Source of the DNA: Vicinamibacteria bacterium
Lineage (GTDB): Bacteria; Acidobacteriota; Vicinamibacteria; Marinacidobacterales; Marinacidobacteraceae
Assembly (NCBI GenBank): GCA_963422395.1
Contig: OY729431.1
Location: forward strand, 2,368,001-2,432,000
Length of the DNA stretch: 64,000 bases
Direction: 5' to 3'
The notes below the pieces were generated by a model. It saw nothing but the letters and a program-made list of their open reading frames with translations. It did not search any database and had not been told where the DNA came from. Of this stretch, positions 56,582 to 64,000 are shown one piece after another (the stretch's first letter is position 1; every line of letters begins with the position of its first letter). The position numbers and the translations under genes were made by a program.

Positions 56582-57244
56582 CTATCTCGCAGCGGCGGAC
56601 AACCGCCGCCCGAGCACCAAAACCACGACCGCCCCGTACAGAGCGCCCAGCAACGCCCCGAAGAGGGCGCCGAACAAGGGGGTTCCCCCATCGAATCGGA
56701 AGGCCGCCCCTGCCGCCGCCGTCACCACCGCCGCTGCGGCGAACCCCCCGGCGCTGGCGGCGGCTAACCGGCCTGCCCCCGGGACGCACCGCCGCAGGAC
56801 CCCCCAGTGCGCGAGGAGGAAGGCCGCGAGCCCGACGACGACGGCAGCCGCGGCCGCAACAGCAGCCGCCGAACCCGGGGCCCCGCTTCCAGCGGGGGGC
56901 ATCCCCTGGAGCACGGCGAAGGCGGAAGCGGCCGCCGCCGCACCCGCCGCCGCACCCGCCGCCGGCCAGCGAGCCGCCCAGGAGACCCGGCCGCGCAGCA
57001 GCGGCCACTGCGCCAGCGCGACCCCGCCCAGCACCCCACCCCCGGCCACTGCACCGACGACGGCCTCGCCGACGACGGCGCCGAGCGCCCCGTGCGCCGC
57101 GCCTCCCACCAGATAGGAGAGCGGCCGCGCCACCGCTGCGGCAGCGGCCATCCCCGCCGCACTCGCCAGAATCCAGAGGACCCGAAAGCGGCTGCTATCC
57201 AGTCCACCCTCCGGCGCCCCCGCTTCCCCGACTGCCGCGCCCAT
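56582..57244 (-). CDS. Ala/Gly-rich multi-TM hypothetical protein
   Basis: Several hydrophobic segments; repeated AQWPLLR / AHWGVLRR motif. Confidence 0.7.
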   Translation of the reverse strand: MGAAVGEAGAPEGGLDSSRFRVLWILASAAGMAAAAAVARPLSYLVGGAAHGALGAVVGEAVVGAVAGGGVLGGVALAQWPLLRGRVSWAARWPAAGAAAGAAAAASAFAVLQGMPPAGSGAPGSAAAVAAAAAVVVGLAAFLLAHWGVLRRCVPGAGRLAAASAGGFAAAAVVTAAAGAAFRFDGGTPLFGALFGALLGALYGAVVVLVLGRRLSAAAR

Positions 57245-57368
57245 GACCGCCGCAGCCTACCGCACGGACGAAGGGGCGATGATCAGACCCCTGCCGGACA
57301 CCTCAAGGAAACTGGACCCCGGAAAACGCTTCCCCGCTATCCCCTCGAATCACGCTCACGCTCCCTGC

Positions 57369-60300
57369 TCAAGATCCTTTTCTCTCCAGCGCGGCTTCCA
57401 GGACCCCGAGCGCCACCCGCCGGGCGAGATGCGGGTGGGCGAACTGGTTGCGGTAGCTCCGAAGACATCCGTAACAACTCCGGTCGCAGCCGCAGCCGCC
57501 TGCGACACGATCCCGCGCCCGTTCGAGGACCCGGCGAAAGCTGCGTTCGTCCGTCAGTTGCGCCACCAGGCCCGCCCCGCCGGGAACATCGTCGTAGAGG
57601 ACGACCGCACCCGGAGCGAGCGTCACATTCAGATCGCGCTCGGGTACCGCCACCGCGTCAGCAGCTCCGAGAAGCAGGGCGTAGCCCACCGAGTAACGAC
57701 CCCACCGGTCGAGCGGTTCCGGGAAACACACCTTTACCACATCGGTCTTCAGATCGTGGCCGAGCGAGAACCTGCGAAAGCACCCGGAGCATCGCTGCCC
57801 GTCTGACCTAAAGTGTTCAGACTTCGGACCGGCCTCGTGCTTACCGCACACTCCACACAACAGGAAACCTCTCCTCCCCGACCCCTCGCATAGAACGACC
57901 AATTCTCCGGGAACCGCTTCGCTTACCCCGATCCCGAAGATGTCCTTTTCGTCCGGCGAGCCCGTGCCGGTGAATCCTCGGAAGAAGGGGCGCGTCGAGT
58001 AGAGACGCTTGTTGCGCCTCTCCGGCGCCTTGGGTCTATCCCAAATTTTCGTTTCGAAACCGAATTCCGGCACGAGATACTTGCGGCCGCCCGCTTCAGA
58101 ACTCGGGCTTGTGAAATCCGGTTCTCCCGCTTCGTCGTCGCCGTAGGACCGCTCCCTCGGCTCCTTACCTTCGATCTTGCGGATGCCTACCGACTTCCAT
58201 TCCAGCTTGTTCGCCACCACGCTGCTTCCCGGGGCGTACTCGGCGATCGCCAGCGAGAGATCGCGGGAGAGCTCGATCTTCTCGCCTTCCTGCGACATCC
58301 CGGTGTGCAGTTCGACGACATCCACCGGGAATCCGTACTTCGGGATGACGGCTCGTCTAGCGAGGAAAGTCACCGCGCCTTCCTTGGAGATCGTGCGCAT
58401 CCTGTCATCTGCACGGCTCACTCTCCAGAATTTTCGATCTTTCAAGCTGTGATTCTCAATCCGCTTCATCAGCCGATACTCGTCGCAGACCTCGGAGGTC
58501 GCCTCGGCGAGCCGGCTGTCGAGCCCGGCGGCTCGATCGATCCAGCCTCCGTTCCCCAGGCCGAGCTCTTCGTAGAGGCTCTGCGGGACGATCCTGCGGA
58601 GAGTCTCCGAGAGCCGGCGGTTCTCCTCACAGAAACGTTTCAAGGATTCCGCCGCCGAGGGCTCGCTCCAGTCTCCGCCGACGAGCGCTTCGACGGATTT
58701 CGAGCGGCTGCAGTGGCGGGGGTCCCTGAAGAACGCCGAGAGCGCGACGGCCGTCAGATGGCGCGTCACGATCTTCGGATTCGCGATTCCGAGGCGCGGC
58801 GGCACGACGGTTCCGGCGATCAGGTCTTTGGGATTTTGGAAGTAATGGAGATCGTGTGGCCCCCTCCGGCAGTAGGTGAGCGCGAGGCCGGGCCGTTTCC
58901 GGCGCCCGGCGCGGCCGACACGCTGGGCGTAGTTGAAGGGTTCCGGCGGGACATTGCGGAGGAAGGTCACCTCCAAATCGCCCAGGTCCACCCCGACCTC
59001 GAAGGTCGTGGAGGAGCTGAGGAGATGGACCTCCCCGCTTTGGAACTCCGCCTGCCGCCTGCGCGCCTCGTCGTCCGCGAGTTGGGCGGTGTGCTCCGCC
59101 GTAGTCATCTTCGCTGGAAGATCCTTCAGCTCGTAGAGCGTGCGGTAGTGGTTCTCGGAGAGCTTCTCCATATCTACTGGTTTCAGGGCACCTCGGCAAC
59201 CGCTGCGGGGGCAGATCCTCCGGATGTCGTGGGGTGTGATCCGGGCGCAGGTGCCGCATTCCCGGAGTTCGGGCAGCTCGACGGCCCGTACCCGCAGCCA
59301 TCCCGCCTTCAGCCGAAAGGCACCATCTCCTCCGGCGCGTTCCAGCAGGCGCTCCTCGCTGGACACCTCGTCGTCGTGCTCCCTGATGGCGGCCCATACC
59401 GCCTTCATCAGTCTTTGCGCATCCTCCTCGCGATTAGCACCCTTCGGTAACGCCGAATCTCCGAGGAGTCGGGGAAGGAAGTGCTTCACCAGCGAACTCG
59501 TCTCGCCGCCCCATTCCGAGACTTGCTTTCTCCCGCGCGGAGCACTCCCCGCGAAAGCCGGTTGCCGCTGCGGGCGGGGGCTCACTCCCTTCCAGTCCGG
59601 GAATTCCGGGCCATCGGGCAGCGCGATCGCCCCGACCTCCCGAAATCGGGCCAGGAGGAACTGCAGCAGCGCCGCTGCTGCTTCCGGCGTGAAGTTCCAG
59701 GGCGGGCGCTGCATCTCCCGCGGCGGTTTCAAGCCGACCGGCAGCTGCACCGACCACCGCGCGATCCCGACACCTTCGAGCGACAGTCGGGTTTCCTCCG
59801 TGAGAGCCTCGGTGAGAATTGCCGAATACGCACGGCGCAGGACGGTCTCGGCGGTGTCCGAAACCGCATCCACGCCAGCATCGCGCCGGACGCGCACCAG
59901 CCGGTGCCCGAAATCCTCGACGGACAGCGCGCTTCGGCGAACCGGGTTTGCACTCCCGGTCCAGCAGAGCGCTCGCAGCATGAGGTTTCGGTCCCGAACC
60001 CTGGTGTAGGAGTCCTCGGCGTACCAGGCGAAGAACGCCGCGTCCTGCCGACTGTCCGCGAACGCCAGGATCTTGCGGGCTTCCTTCGGCAGGAGGCCGT
60101 GGACTGCAGTCGCCAGGACCGCGTTCGGTCCGTCGGCGCCGTGCACGATCTCCTGTACCGGATCACCGACGCCGCCGCGCCGATAACCGCAGCGGGCACA
60201 TTCCCTCAGCTGATCGGAGTGACCCGGCCGGTTCTTACCCTTCTTTATCGGGATCGAAGCCTCGCAACCGCAAGCAGAAGCCCCGCGGCCGATCGCGCCG

Positions 60301-61643
60301 CAGCGCCGGCACAGGGTTTCGCGGGCAGTATCGGCGGTCTCAGCAGAAGACGGCAGGTAGAAGTCCACGCCGAAATCGTGCCGGGCCGGATCCCGGACCG
60401 CCTCCACGAGCTTCCCGCCCTGGGCTTTGCCGACATAGTAGTGCTGGCCGCATTCCCGGCAGAGGGCGATCTCGAGCGGTTCCGCTGCCGGCCCGCCTCC
60501 CGGATCCCCGGAGACGCGGTTCAGGACGACGCGGTCCTGCCCTCGGTCGTGGAGCAGGAAGGCTCCCTCGAGGGCCCGGACGAACAGGTGGTAGCGCCGC
60601 ACATCCGACGCGCATTCGGCCTTCGATCCGGATTCCTCGTATTTGCCGAAAACGACTCCGCTGGGTTCGAACGGCTCTCCGAACAGGGTCCCGGCGAAGT
60701 CGGCGACGGCCCGTCGATCGTTTTCGGTACCGCCGGAGGCGATGGTCGCGCTGGTGGCGAGGCAGCGGAACGGTTTTCGCCTTCCTCCTTCTCGCAGGCG
60801 CTCCTTCAACCGGCGGAGCAGCATCGCCATCTCGATGCCCTTCGCGCCGCGGTAGGCGTGCGCCTCGTCCAGGATCAGGAAGCGCCAGTGTTCCCCGCGC
60901 CCTTCGTCGAACAGCGCACTCTCTTGCGGGCGGATGAGGAGGTACTCCAGCATGGAGTAGTTCGTGAACAGGATGTGCGGAGGGCTCTCCAACATGTCCT
61001 CGCGGAAGACCTTCTCGCCGGGAAGCGCTTTCCTCCCGCGCTCTGCTCCGTTTCGGCTCCTGTCTTGCGCGTTCTTGGGCGTCTGTCCGATGTACTGTCC
61101 GAAAGTGAAACGGAAATCGGAACCGGAGTTTGCCAAATCCCCACAGAGGCCGCCGAGTCGGCGGCGCTGGTCGTTCACGAGCGCGTTCATCGGGTAGAGA
61201 ACCAGCGCCCGAACCCCGGGACGGTCGAGCGTCCCGGCGAGGTGTTCCTGGAAGAGGTAGAAGAGGACCGGATAGAGGAAGCACTCCGTCTTGCCGCTCC
61301 CGGTACCGCTCGCGACGACGACATTCCGGTCCTCGAAATGGGCGGCGCGGATGGCGTGCTCTTGATGAAAATGGAGGTTTCCCTTCAAGAGTGCGGGGAA
61401 GAGTGCCTCGGCCTTTTCGGGGAATGTTTCCCGCGCGAGCTCCCGAGCTTCGATCCCCGGGGGGAATCGTCGTCCGTGCTCCGGAAATGGTCCCCGCAGC
61501 AGGTTCTCGCCCTCGCTGCCAAGCGCTTCCCGGAAAGATTGGCGCAGCGTCGGGTCGCGGAAATGGAAACTGGTCGTCAGGTAGCTGACATAGCGGGAAT
61601 GCAGGATATCGACCCAACGGTCGATCTCACTTGGAGTGGGCAT
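57369..61643 (-). CDS. YprA/DruE-like SF2 DEAH helicase with C-terminal DUF1998 Zn-binding domain
   Basis: [64 protein letters not shown]; C-terminal DDVPGGAG...[11 protein letters not shown]; GGAGA RBS. Confidence 0.93.
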
Positions 61644-64000
61644 CGGCGCGTTCTCCTTCGAACTCCATTTCGATGTAACTCAAATCCTTGCCTCGAAGCT
61701 CCGCCACGCCTGCCTTCGAGCGAAGCGAGAGCAGTCCGGTCATCGTGGCCTCGACCACATTCTTCGGGTTTTTGCTGCCGAGAGATTTCGTCAGGATGTC
61801 CCCGATCCCCGCCAGCTCGATCACCGCCCGCGCCGGGCCGCCGGCGATGACGCCGGTTCCCCGTGATGCCGGTTTCAGCAGCACCCGCGCTGCTCCGAAC
61901 ACCCCCACCACCTGGTGCGCGATCGTCGAGCCCTCCCGGGGAATCGCCGTCAGATTCTTCTTGGCGATCTCGGTTCCCTTCTTGATCGCCGCCGGCACCT
62001 CACGCGCTTTCCCGAGCCCGAACCCGACGCGGCCATCCTCGTTCCCCACGACCACCAGCGCCGAGAAGGAAAGGTTCTTGCCGCCCTTCACCACTTTCGT
62101 CACCCGGTTGATCGAGACCACCTTGTCCTTGAGGTCCGGGGCTCCCGTGCGTTCCACCTGGATATTCCGGGGGTCGCGCGGCGGCCGCGGCCGGAGCTTT
62201 CTGGCCGGTTCGGGTTTCAGCGGCGGTGGATCCGGTGTCACCTCGATCAAGTCGAACTCCAGATCGGAATCCATACCGGGCAGCCGGAGCCGAAGCGCGC
62301 ACGCCTCGCTCATGTCCCGACCGACGGCAGCGTAGTCGCGGAAACTCTCGAGTGGAACGACCGAGCGGCGCTTGCTCGGGAAATCTTCGTCCCGTTTCGG
62401 AGTGAAGGACTGATATTCGCCACCATCCAATCCGTTCCCCAGGCCGACCTCGAGAGACTTCGCTGTCTCTGGCACGAGAACCTCGATTTCCTTCCCTGTC
62501 TTGCGGAATTGCGTACGCGTCATCGGAAGAAGGGTTCGACCCGCCCAATCTCCCTTTCCCGAGAGGCGCCACCAGACCCGCGGCAGGTGGACCGAGACAC
62601 CCATCTCCGACTTTCCCTCGCGGAGGAGCAAGCGCACTTCGTCGGCTTCGGGGCGGGACTGGACTCTCACCGCTCCGTCGGCGCTCAAGGAGGCATGCAG
62701 ACTCGATACCTCGGGACGCAGCCGGCCGCTGCGCCCGACGAGGCAAACGGTATCGCTGCGGCGGGAATCCGCCCCCGGCGCCAGCACCAGATCCTCCCGG
62801 AACGGCTCGCCGTTCACTCGGATCCCCTCGAGGCCGGGCCAGTAGCGGAAGGCGGCGCTATCCACGAGAGCCATTCCGCCCAGCGGATAGGTGCGCAGGA
62901 AGAACCGGCCCTTCCTCCCTTTCAGCACTTCGGCGATCGATCTCTCGGCTACGCGGAAGTTCTGACCCTTCCAACCACCCGGGCGTTCTTCCCCGACGCG
63001 CGCCCATTCGATGCCTTCCCCCACATCCAGCCTCGGCGGTTCCCCGACGAAGAGCTCCCCTTCGTCCGAGCTCTCGAAGAGAGACTCCCCCCACAGCCAG
63101 GCGCTCCGACTGGCCCCCGGCCGCCAATCCCCGATGGAACCGAGAGAGTCCGGAGAGTCGTCTTTCGAAGTGGTGAAGAAATGAGCGCGGAAATCGGGAT
63201 CCGAACAGGGCTCCGGTTCCCGGAACTCGTGCCCCTTTCGAGGCCAAGCGACAGGGGCGATCACGAGGTAGCGTCCGACGGTGATCCGCTCGCATTGCCG
63301 CCCCACCAGCAAGTCCTCAGAGCCCGAAAGCCGGAACCGGAGCGGCGTCTTCCCGTCGTCGAACAGCGGGATGCCGCCCGACTCCCCGTCGCCCCAAGCG
63401 AGCGACAACCTACCCGAGAAGGACGCCAGCGGATACTCGCTGTCCCGAGACTTCAAGTCGGTTTCGCCATGACGCATCGCCGTAACCCCCATCTCGGGAT
63501 CGACGGAAAGCACGATCTCCCACTCGTGGGAGCCGGGCGTTCTTCGGCACCGGAGTTCCGGCGGAGAGTCGGGTGGCCGGGACCGGGGCGCAATCGCTCC
63601 TGACGAACCCCGCCGCCCGCCGGTCCGGCGGGGTTCCCCCGGTTCCCGCGGCCTCTCGGGTTCCGGGGGTGGCCTCGGAGGCAGTGCGGCCTCGGGTGGG
63701 ACGGCACCTTCCGTCCGCGACTCGCCTTTCGGCAGTTCGTCCGATGGTTCGTCCGATTTCGGAGACGGAGATGCGGATCGGTCCTCCGGATCCCCGCCCT
63801 CCGCACCATCTCTCTGCGAGGGATCGGATGGCGCCGGAGGCCGCTCCGGAGGCGGGCTGCCACTCGCCCCGGGCGACTCGCCGACTCCACCCGGCGCATC
63901 GCCATTCCCGCCCGGCGCTTCATCACCGTTCCCCGCGCCCGGCGCCGGCGCGTCTCCCTCGCCATCGGCCTCGAGGACCCCTGCCCCCTCGTCCTCCTGT
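61627..64000 (-). CDS. Large unknown protein (DruH-like position) fused to C-terminal ribosomal protein uS5; 5' end outside window
   Basis: I translated the frame upstream of 63513 and found no stop up to base 64000. The stop codon overlaps the helicase start by 17 nt. Confidence 0.85.
61681..62157 (-). other. rpsE: Full-length uS5 domain within the fusion ORF
   Basis: [30 protein letters not shown]...[19 protein letters not shown]...[15 protein letters not shown]...[17 protein letters not shown]...VAELRGK. Confidence 0.97.

Follow-up and report, generated by a model that had tools for sequence, protein, structure and literature searches.

A Druantia type III-like helicase module whose partner protein carries a copy of ribosomal protein uS5 at an exchangeable C-terminal position

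Introduction

Druantia type III systems consist of the accessory protein DruH and the helicase DruE. As described in preprint texts, the type III-A DruE is a protein of about 2100 amino acids (aa) with two C-terminal PLD domains (10.1101/2025.09.15.676423; 10.64898/2026.05.13.724758), and a distinct III-B or "type III-like" branch has a helicase that mostly comes without a nuclease (10.1101/2025.09.15.676423, Bell et al. 2025 preprint; 10.64898/2026.05.13.724758). Here we describe a two-gene locus at the end of a 64,000-nucleotide window, C1:2368001-2432000 of the single 2.9-Mb contig of a Vicinamibacteria bacterium (genome G000). The locus encodes a DruE-like helicase and, upstream of it, a partner protein of an uncharacterised family that ends in a complete ribosomal protein uS5. 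Related partner proteins carry other proteins of the translation and transcription machinery at the same position. We tentatively favour the reading that this is a Druantia type III-B-like, putative anti-phage module in which the copied host expression-machinery proteins serve as bait.

DruH, termed "enigmatic" in the 2026 Druantia preprints, is described in them as an immunoglobulin (Ig)-like-rich protein of about 1100 aa from the YjiT/STY4851 family, with a proposed role as protein-recognising sensor or scaffold (10.64898/2026.05.12.724681; 10.64898/2026.05.13.724758; 10.64898/2026.05.12.722862). For type III-A, the first of these texts proposes that DruH senses infection by recognising proteins (10.64898/2026.05.12.724681), and the second gives an account in which DruE and DruH bind host proteins that infection displaces, single-stranded DNA (ssDNA) triggers the system, and E. 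coli DruE works on DNA, with no unwinding of an RNA duplex (10.64898/2026.05.13.724758). In the literature searched, supplements excepted, no report came up of Druantia-like or other YprA-helicase systems with modules derived from ribosomal proteins or Nus factors, and the stem "ribosom" is absent from the main texts (supplements not covered) of the Druantia, YprA and modularity papers searched. Within Druantia-like YprA helicase systems, the locus is new both in the family of its partner and in the principle by which modules are captured.

Results and Discussion

A partner gene ending in uS5 overlaps a DruE-like helicase gene

Both genes lie on the minus strand. Their features are as follows, in window positions:

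61627..64000, minus strand: partner gene, in-window part; the open frame runs on past the window edge and its stop codon is at 61627-61629
57369..61643, minus strand: DruE-like YprA-family superfamily 2 (SF2) helicase, 1424 aa, from Pfam, PADLOC and NCBIfam matches
63553..64000, minus strand: acidic Pro/Gly-rich low-complexity region of the partner with a conserved GGRR motif at its end, from the consensus of the homologue alignment
62200..63552, minus strand: conserved core of about 450 aa, uncharacterised family, from profile searches and the homologue alignment
62167..62238, minus strand: Pro/Arg-rich linker, from comparison with canonical uS5
61670..62194, minus strand: captured rpsE copy, from DNA homology to canonical rpsE
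61681-62136, minus strand: uS5 as defined by hidden Markov models (HMMs), both domains, from Pfam and NCBIfam
61627..61680, minus strand: 17-aa non-S5 C-terminal tail and stop codon, read from the sequence

A preliminary description, made from the sequence alone, had noticed a single uninterrupted open reading frame (ORF) running from beyond 64000 to 61627 and ending in uS5, and the minus-strand frame confirms it. The last 170 residues of the partner comprise the complete uS5 and then the 17-aa non-S5 tail. The same description had placed the ribosome-binding site and start codon of the helicase in this tail, which is where they lie: the AGGAG at 61657-61653 and the ATG at 61643-61641 are both inside the tail region, and the two genes overlap by 17 nucleotides (nt). 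The final part of the Pro/Arg-rich linker is already homologous to the N-terminal extension of canonical uS5.

The partner frame comprises 966 codons in the genome, 175 of which lie past the window end. The database gene call P0003 (628 aa, GTG at 63513) cuts away conserved core residues. As codons 72-337 of the open frame contain no in-frame start codon, the true start has to be sought about 300 codons upstream of 63513, beyond the window. It is likely the ATG at genome position 2432323 (323 nt past the window end), which would give a protein of 899 aa. This start is favoured because the sequence beginning MAFGLLSWAIRALRQGVRTWRRR fits the N-terminal pattern of the homologues, in which a short amphipathic W/R-rich helix comes first and an acidic Pro-rich region next; the conserved helix itself matches MAFGLLSWAIRALRQGVRTWRRR at the proposed start. 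The order along the partner is thus W/R-rich N-terminal helix, acidic disordered region (about 250 aa of low complexity in all, extending upstream of the window), core of about 450 aa, Pro-rich linker and exchangeable C-terminal module.

The core had been called an unrecognised region of about 450 aa, and it still is one: searches of Pfam, PADLOC and NCBIfam gave no match, a sequence search of the PDB gave 0 hits at E<=10, and a PDB search with the family profiles A1 and A2 matched only uS5 and eL13, through the tail columns. Its invariant residues include F73, G84, G187, E189, R220 and W327-W328 within an LPRVWWRL motif.

The fused uS5 was recently copied from the rpsE of its own genome

Residues 622-773 of the 790 encoded in the window match Pfam Ribosomal_S5 over 1-65/65 (E 1.8e-27) and Ribosomal_S5_C over 1-71/71 (E 6.6e-27), and the fused uS5 scores 208.1 bits with the NCBIfam model rpsE_bact (TIGR01021), above the equivalog cut-off of 164.05. 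In having both domains it resembles any bacterial uS5. The view that the fusion lies outside the spc operon was right: no L18, L30 or L15 gene stands beside it, and the separate canonical rpsE, the existence of which had been proposed as a test, was found about 240 kb away between L18 and L30 in a normal spc operon (L24-L5-S14-S8-L6-L18-S5-L30-L15-SecY). Fused and canonical rpsE are 88% identical in DNA over 527 nt (12% different), and 151 of 166 aa are the same. Unlike the canonical gene, the fused copy stands behind about 740 aa of unrelated protein and ends in another C-terminal tail, which reaches into the next gene.

The oddness of the fusion is all that speaks for an assembly or gene-calling artefact joining rpsE to an unrelated ORF, an explanation we regard as practically negligible. 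The existence of a separate canonical rpsE that differs by 12% in DNA argues against it. Misassembly at the junctions at 62157 and 61681, a risk named from the outset, was checked with independent contigs, which bridge both. A 2231-nt Logan contig (runs X1 and X4) covers 61969-63600 and crosses the core-to-S5 junction; contigs of 394 nt (X1, X4) and 559 nt (X5, from a second study) span the S5 end together with the helicase start, and another X5 contig is the canonical rpsE. Since X1 and X4 may derive from the source sample, the stronger argument is the recurrence of the fusion in other assemblies, namely in G012, G007, G016 and many metagenomic proteins.

All 28 genomes of the bacterial family have one canonical rpsE (28/28). 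A second S5 match was found in only 6 of them, each time inside a partner-gene open frame of 763-1097 aa. In a codon-level tree of the 28 canonical and 4 fused copies, the fused uS5 of G000 is sister to the rpsE of the same genome with a support of 0.999, which bears out the idea of a captured ribosomal protein. Identity at third codon positions points the same way, being 74.6% between the fused copy and its own rpsE and no higher than 63.3% with any of the family's 27 other canonical rpsE genes. The protein-level S5 tree grouped the two G000 copies with a support of only 0.39, too weak to be used, and the codon-level tree was therefore needed. S5 matches with at least 130 aligned positions entered the S5 trees, which left out the decayed tails of G018, G021, P0014, P0017, P0018, P0097 and P0125.

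Between fused and own rpsE, the synonymous divergence (dS) is 0.40 and the ratio of nonsynonymous to synonymous divergence (dN/dS) 0.146, compared with 0.043 between canonical copies; 13 of the 17 amino-acid differences fall on the fusion branch. The fused copy thus evolves faster than canonical rpsE, and it retains 115 of the 119 residues that are invariant in the canonical uS5 of the family. The fused uS5 is a recent captured copy of the host's own rpsE and is under purifying selection. Because 115/119 invariant residues are retained, its assembly into the 30S subunit is conceivable.

In other lineages, the S5 tails form a decay series, with HMM scores of 213, 121, 89, 61 and 48 bits and 113, 67 and 39 of the 119 invariant residues retained. 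In the codon-level tree, the G012 fusion falls outside the whole set of canonical family copies, and the fused copies of G007 and G016 sit on long branches. Capture or renewal of uS5 has therefore happened at least twice, and captured copies are at first held by purifying selection and may drift later on.

The C-terminal module is exchanged among homologues

A search with the core against a library of 1.84 billion proteins returned 440 cluster representatives (50% identity) at E<=1e-3, 254 of them at E<=1e-30; the core homologues listed are the best 150 of the 440. Collecting their C-terminal domains widened the preliminary idea of a single captured ribosomal protein, as other translation and transcription proteins occupy the same position. 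Behind the core and the Pro-rich linker, Pfam confirmed a whole uS5, six S1 domains, a NusA-type KH module, bS18 or an eL13-like motif and, further, a complete bS6 (1-90/90) and the N-terminal domain of TrcR. One tail is NusB (P0139, residues 518-641) and another homologue ends in a SNF2 ATPase (Pfam); a CarD/TRCF RNA-polymerase-interacting (RID-like) domain in one tail is a weak match just under threshold. In P0005, the tail with the six S1 domains is 83% identical over 594 aa to the S1 of the P0003/G000 genome. The captured ribosomal proteins extend to their native C-termini, and NusA contributes only its KH domains, without its RNA-polymerase-binding N-terminal domain.

The 172 family proteins include 10 with tails shorter than 30 aa, which were left out; a census of the other 162 tails (30 aa or longer) gave the following counts:

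eL13-like (strict pattern): 92
uS5: 17
NusA-KH: 7
unknown type common to several members: 4
bS18: 2
bS6: 2
TrcR: 2
bS1: 1
NusB: 1
unclassified: 34

By eye, at least 15 of the 34 unclassified tails bear a variant of the eL13-like motif. Scanning 40 unclear members with Pfam turned up L13e in 8, S5_C in 7, DUF4389 in 2 and NusB, S18 and PIN in 1 each.

The commonest module consists of an Ig-like domain and an eL13-like motif of about 40 aa. The motif, GKGFS..EL..AGL...A..I..D.RRR..H..N, matches positions 60-100 of the Pfam model of eukaryotic/archaeal eL13. In five genomes with eL13-like tails the tail itself was the sole match to Pfam L13e, and the motif is therefore not a copy of a host gene in these genomes.

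The core tree, built from the 137 sequences with near-full core coverage, shows how the modules are distributed. Clade 1 is acidobacterial and has mostly S5 tails, with S1, S18 and KH tails nested among them. Clade 2, which is large, carries the Ig-like domain with the eL13-like motif and shows sporadic S6, NusB, TrcR, S5 and other replacements. Both of these major partner clades occur within one bacterial family, G011 having the Ig-like and eL13-like module and six other genomes S5 tails. This indicates that, besides the swapping of tails, whole modules have been exchanged horizontally.

One explanation of this diversity is that the tail is a generic RNA- or ssDNA-binding module for a nucleic-acid trigger, with ribosomal proteins and Nus factors merely being the most available donors. 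S1 (OB fold), KH, the uS5 N-domain, bS6, bS18, NusB and the eL13-like motif are presumably all RNA binders, and decayed S5 tails could still bind nucleic acid. The ssDNA trigger that the preprint text describes for type III-A Druantia would also fit (10.64898/2026.05.13.724758). However, whole multi-domain proteins are kept, as seen in the six S1 domains of P0005 and in both uS5 domains with their dN/dS of 0.15. The SNF2 ATPase, the RID-like domain and TrcR are not simple nucleic-acid binders, and the donors are strongly skewed to 30S and Nus components among the many nucleic-acid-binding proteins of a cell. We therefore consider generic binding unlikely.

The helicase is DruE-like but the partner is not DruH by sequence

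The 1424-aa DEAH and DUF1998 helicase of the preliminary description is borne out by Pfam, with DEAD, Helicase_C and the MZB zinc domain (the former DUF1998, residues 1321-1394), and by PADLOC, in which it matches DruE1 with E 2.8e-142 and DruE3 with E 2.7e-132. It has a GSGKT Walker A motif and a DEAH box, and its NCBIfam scores are far under the equivalog cut-offs. The domain search found no PLD or Vsr nuclease domain, the protein ending 30 aa after MZB. Aligned with the E. coli DruE control, it is 33% identical over the N-terminal RecA region and 27% from RecA2 to MZB, and the alignment stops at residue 1712 of 2104, so that the PLD nuclease region is absent from the helicase. The E. coli DruH/DruE control locus is located on plasmid NZ_CP127005.1, a mobilisable IncY plasmid that carries Zorya II, Druantia III and a SNF2/methyltransferase array described in the literature. 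A tblastn search of plasmids with our helicase returned only distant DruE-like genes with at most 36% identity, none of which covered 80% of the query.

The claim of a Druantia III-like helicase pair is supported, with caveats. As in Druantia III, a large accessory gene lies upstream of a YprA-family DEAH helicase with MZB/DUF1998 in a two-gene operon, in the same order at 14 of 14 confirmed loci. The helicase has no C-terminal nuclease, like that of the III-B or III-like branch and unlike the type III-A DruE with its two C-terminal PLD nuclease domains. By sequence, the partner is not DruH (STY4851/ECs_5259/YjiT family). The partner and two homologues gave 0 PADLOC hits at E<=10, whereas the E. 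coli DruH control hit 11 DruH models, and hhalign of the partner against DruH returned a probability of 0.24%. The partner is also shorter (about 900 versus about 1100 aa). It differs from DruH further in its long disordered N-terminus and in the exchangeable module at its C-terminus, a copy of host ribosomal or Nus proteins.

At the 14 confirmed genome loci, a full-length helicase lies directly downstream of the partner on the same strand. These helicases are 51-71% identical and cover query residues 1 to about 1415; the loci come from Acidobacteriota (Ca. Marinacidobacterium and Bryobacterales included), Alphaproteobacteria and Gammaproteobacteria. Across 15 loci no third gene is conserved, only partner and helicase being common. 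Of 101 related genomes (G000 among them), 8 were found to have the core; within the same family the figure is 6 of 27 genomes. Over the two-gene module (window 57000-64000) G+C is 0.61-0.67, compared with 0.70-0.75 over the adjacent 7 kb. About 6 kb upstream of the partner, on the same strand, lies a type I restriction-modification system (C1:2438340-2445000) with HsdR (HSDR_N, SWI2_SNF2), HsdS and HsdM (N6_Mtase). The two-gene set is conserved and, given its patchy distribution, the G+C dip and the nearby restriction-modification system, looks accessory and mobile; the same three features are the indirect evidence for its putative protection against phage.

The relationship of the helicase to MrfA/YprA repair helicases, with which it shares an SF2 DEAH core and the MZB zinc domain, raises the question of a role outside defence. 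It could be a housekeeping or stress helicase, for instance in MrfA- or Mfd-like transcription- or translation-coupled repair, with the partner as a ribosome- or polymerase-binding adaptor. YprA/MrfA helicases include repair enzymes according to the literature texts, and the RID-like and Nus modules recall transcription-coupled repair. However, the helicase is much longer than MrfA/YprA, is always paired with a partner gene, and finds its best matches in the Druantia DruE models and not in repair helicases. The presence in only 8 of 101 relatives, the low module G+C and the hypervariable terminal module also argue against housekeeping, as does the fast divergence of the core: the G000, G018 and G021 loci have upstream synteny in common, and their cores are only 45-53% identical whereas canonical uS5 is at least 83% identical. 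Taken together, these points make a non-defence role improbable.

Captured host proteins as possible bait or docking handle

The modules suggest that copied gene-expression proteins of the host serve the system as bait or docking handle. In the bait reading, which we favour tentatively, gene 1 would encode a modular sensor or adaptor of an uncharacterised family and gene 2 a nuclease-less DruE-like DNA helicase. The copied host protein would be an integrated bait, so that a phage factor which binds or modifies the host expression component would also engage the copy. This engagement would license or release the helicase, which would then act on phage DNA. We favour this reading because the module varies between close relatives at one fixed position, because its source is the resident genome and its likeness to the original is maintained, because a pattern of birth, decay and replacement is seen, and because the module sits in the protein position thought to be the sensor in Druantia III. 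S1, S6, NusA and NusB are classic targets or co-opted factors of the phages T4, T7, lambda and Qbeta.

Plant nucleotide-binding leucine-rich repeat (NLR) receptors with integrated decoys carry variable host-derived domains at one position of an immune protein. The partner family resembles them in that the module duplicates a host gene (the own rpsE in G000; the S1 tail of P0005) and in that close homologues have different host-derived modules at one fixed position. Unlike the NLR decoys, it is bacterial, it is not built on a chassis of the NLR or STAND (signal transduction ATPases with numerous domains) type, and its majority module, the eL13-like one, is not a host copy.

Several observations weigh against bait. 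We know of no phage factor that targets uS5 or bS18, and the core shows no detectable sequence relation to DruH (PADLOC 0 hits, hhalign 0.24%). The eL13-like motif is found in at least 92 of 162 tails and is not a gene copy in the five genomes tested, so that the bait idea leaves most of the family unexplained. Systems with decayed S5 tails (121, 89, 61 and 48 bits; 39-72 of 119 invariant residues) still have intact ORFs and helicases, and close host mimicry is therefore not always required. In addition, all host-derived modules are constituents or binders of the 30S subunit or of RNA polymerase, which would fit a tether equally well.

Such a tether is the main rival of the bait reading, and we regard it as possible though doubtful. 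The C-terminal module would dock the partner, and through it the helicase, on the host expression machinery: uS5, bS1, bS6 and bS18 would replace the normal protein in 30S subunits, and for the NusB, NusA-KH, RID-like and SNF2 modules the docking site would be Nus complexes or RNA polymerase. Parked like a sentinel where incoming DNA is first transcribed and translated, the system would be released on infection. In its favour, each host-derived module that was identified either belongs to the 30S subunit or RNA polymerase or binds one of them directly, the ribosomal proteins are near-whole and keep their native C-termini behind a flexible Pro-rich N-terminal linker, the fresh uS5 retains nearly all invariant residues (115/119), and the majority motif is similar to part of a ribosomal protein, eL13. 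The host proteins described in preprint form as complexed with type III-A Druantia and dissociating on infection would be in line with this (10.64898/2026.05.13.724758). However, ribosome assembly is hard to imagine for decayed S5 tails with 39-72 of 119 invariant residues, and still the systems that carry them persist. Swaps between S5, S1, S18 and KH within one clade, that is, between unrelated docking sites, are unexpected for a mere anchor, and from NusA only the KH domains were taken and not the domain that binds RNA polymerase. The preprint account of E. coli DruE as acting on DNA, without RNA duplex unwinding, also speaks against a tether (10.64898/2026.05.13.724758).

A more speculative form of this reading, to which we give somewhat less credence, is that of sentinel ribosomes. 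The partner would replace uS5 in some 30S subunits (in relatives bS1, bS6 or bS18, or it would join Nus-bound polymerase) and station the helicase there. Renewal of this handle or bait would come from copying the host's current gene, and the whole would be a bacterial counterpart of integrated decoys made from core ribosomal proteins. Decayed S5 tails and the non-host eL13-like majority module strain the bait and the tether readings alike.

How helicase defences such as Druantia tell infection from normal life is a question for which this sister accessory family now offers a testable idea. Time and again its variable end has been remade out of 30S proteins and Nus factors of the cell itself, and it is these components of the expression apparatus that phages are known to take over. 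If the bait reading is true, immune sensing would operate via copies of host targets, a principle established in plants of which we found no report for phage defence in the literature searched; if the tether is true, an immune helicase would be physically stationed on ribosomes or polymerase. The S5, S1, S18, KH, S6 and NusB tails provide a natural module-swap series for experiments. The locus is also a case in which the gene of an essential ribosomal protein was duplicated and then put to non-ribosomal use.

Additional domains and neighbouring genes

Some family members have extra N-terminal domains. P0211 contains sigma-70 regions 2-4 at residues 190-410, which are not a tail; owing to this N-terminal position we rejected them as an exchangeable module, and they may stem from a gene-call fusion. 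P0027 and P0050 have a PIN-like N-terminus by our own reading, and Pfam PIN matched one family member. The extra domains of these three proteins could be real fusions or gene-call read-throughs.

Two ORFs directly downstream of the helicase were considered as third components and rejected, each having 0 hits in the 14 loci:

56582-57244, minus strand: Ala/Gly-rich hydrophobic ORF, 220 aa
55359-56513, minus strand: AAA_16/STAND-like ATPase, 384 aa

On the other side of the locus, between the partner and the type I restriction-modification system, lie a beta-lactamase-family gene, amidohydrolase-family genes and a weak Uma2 match.

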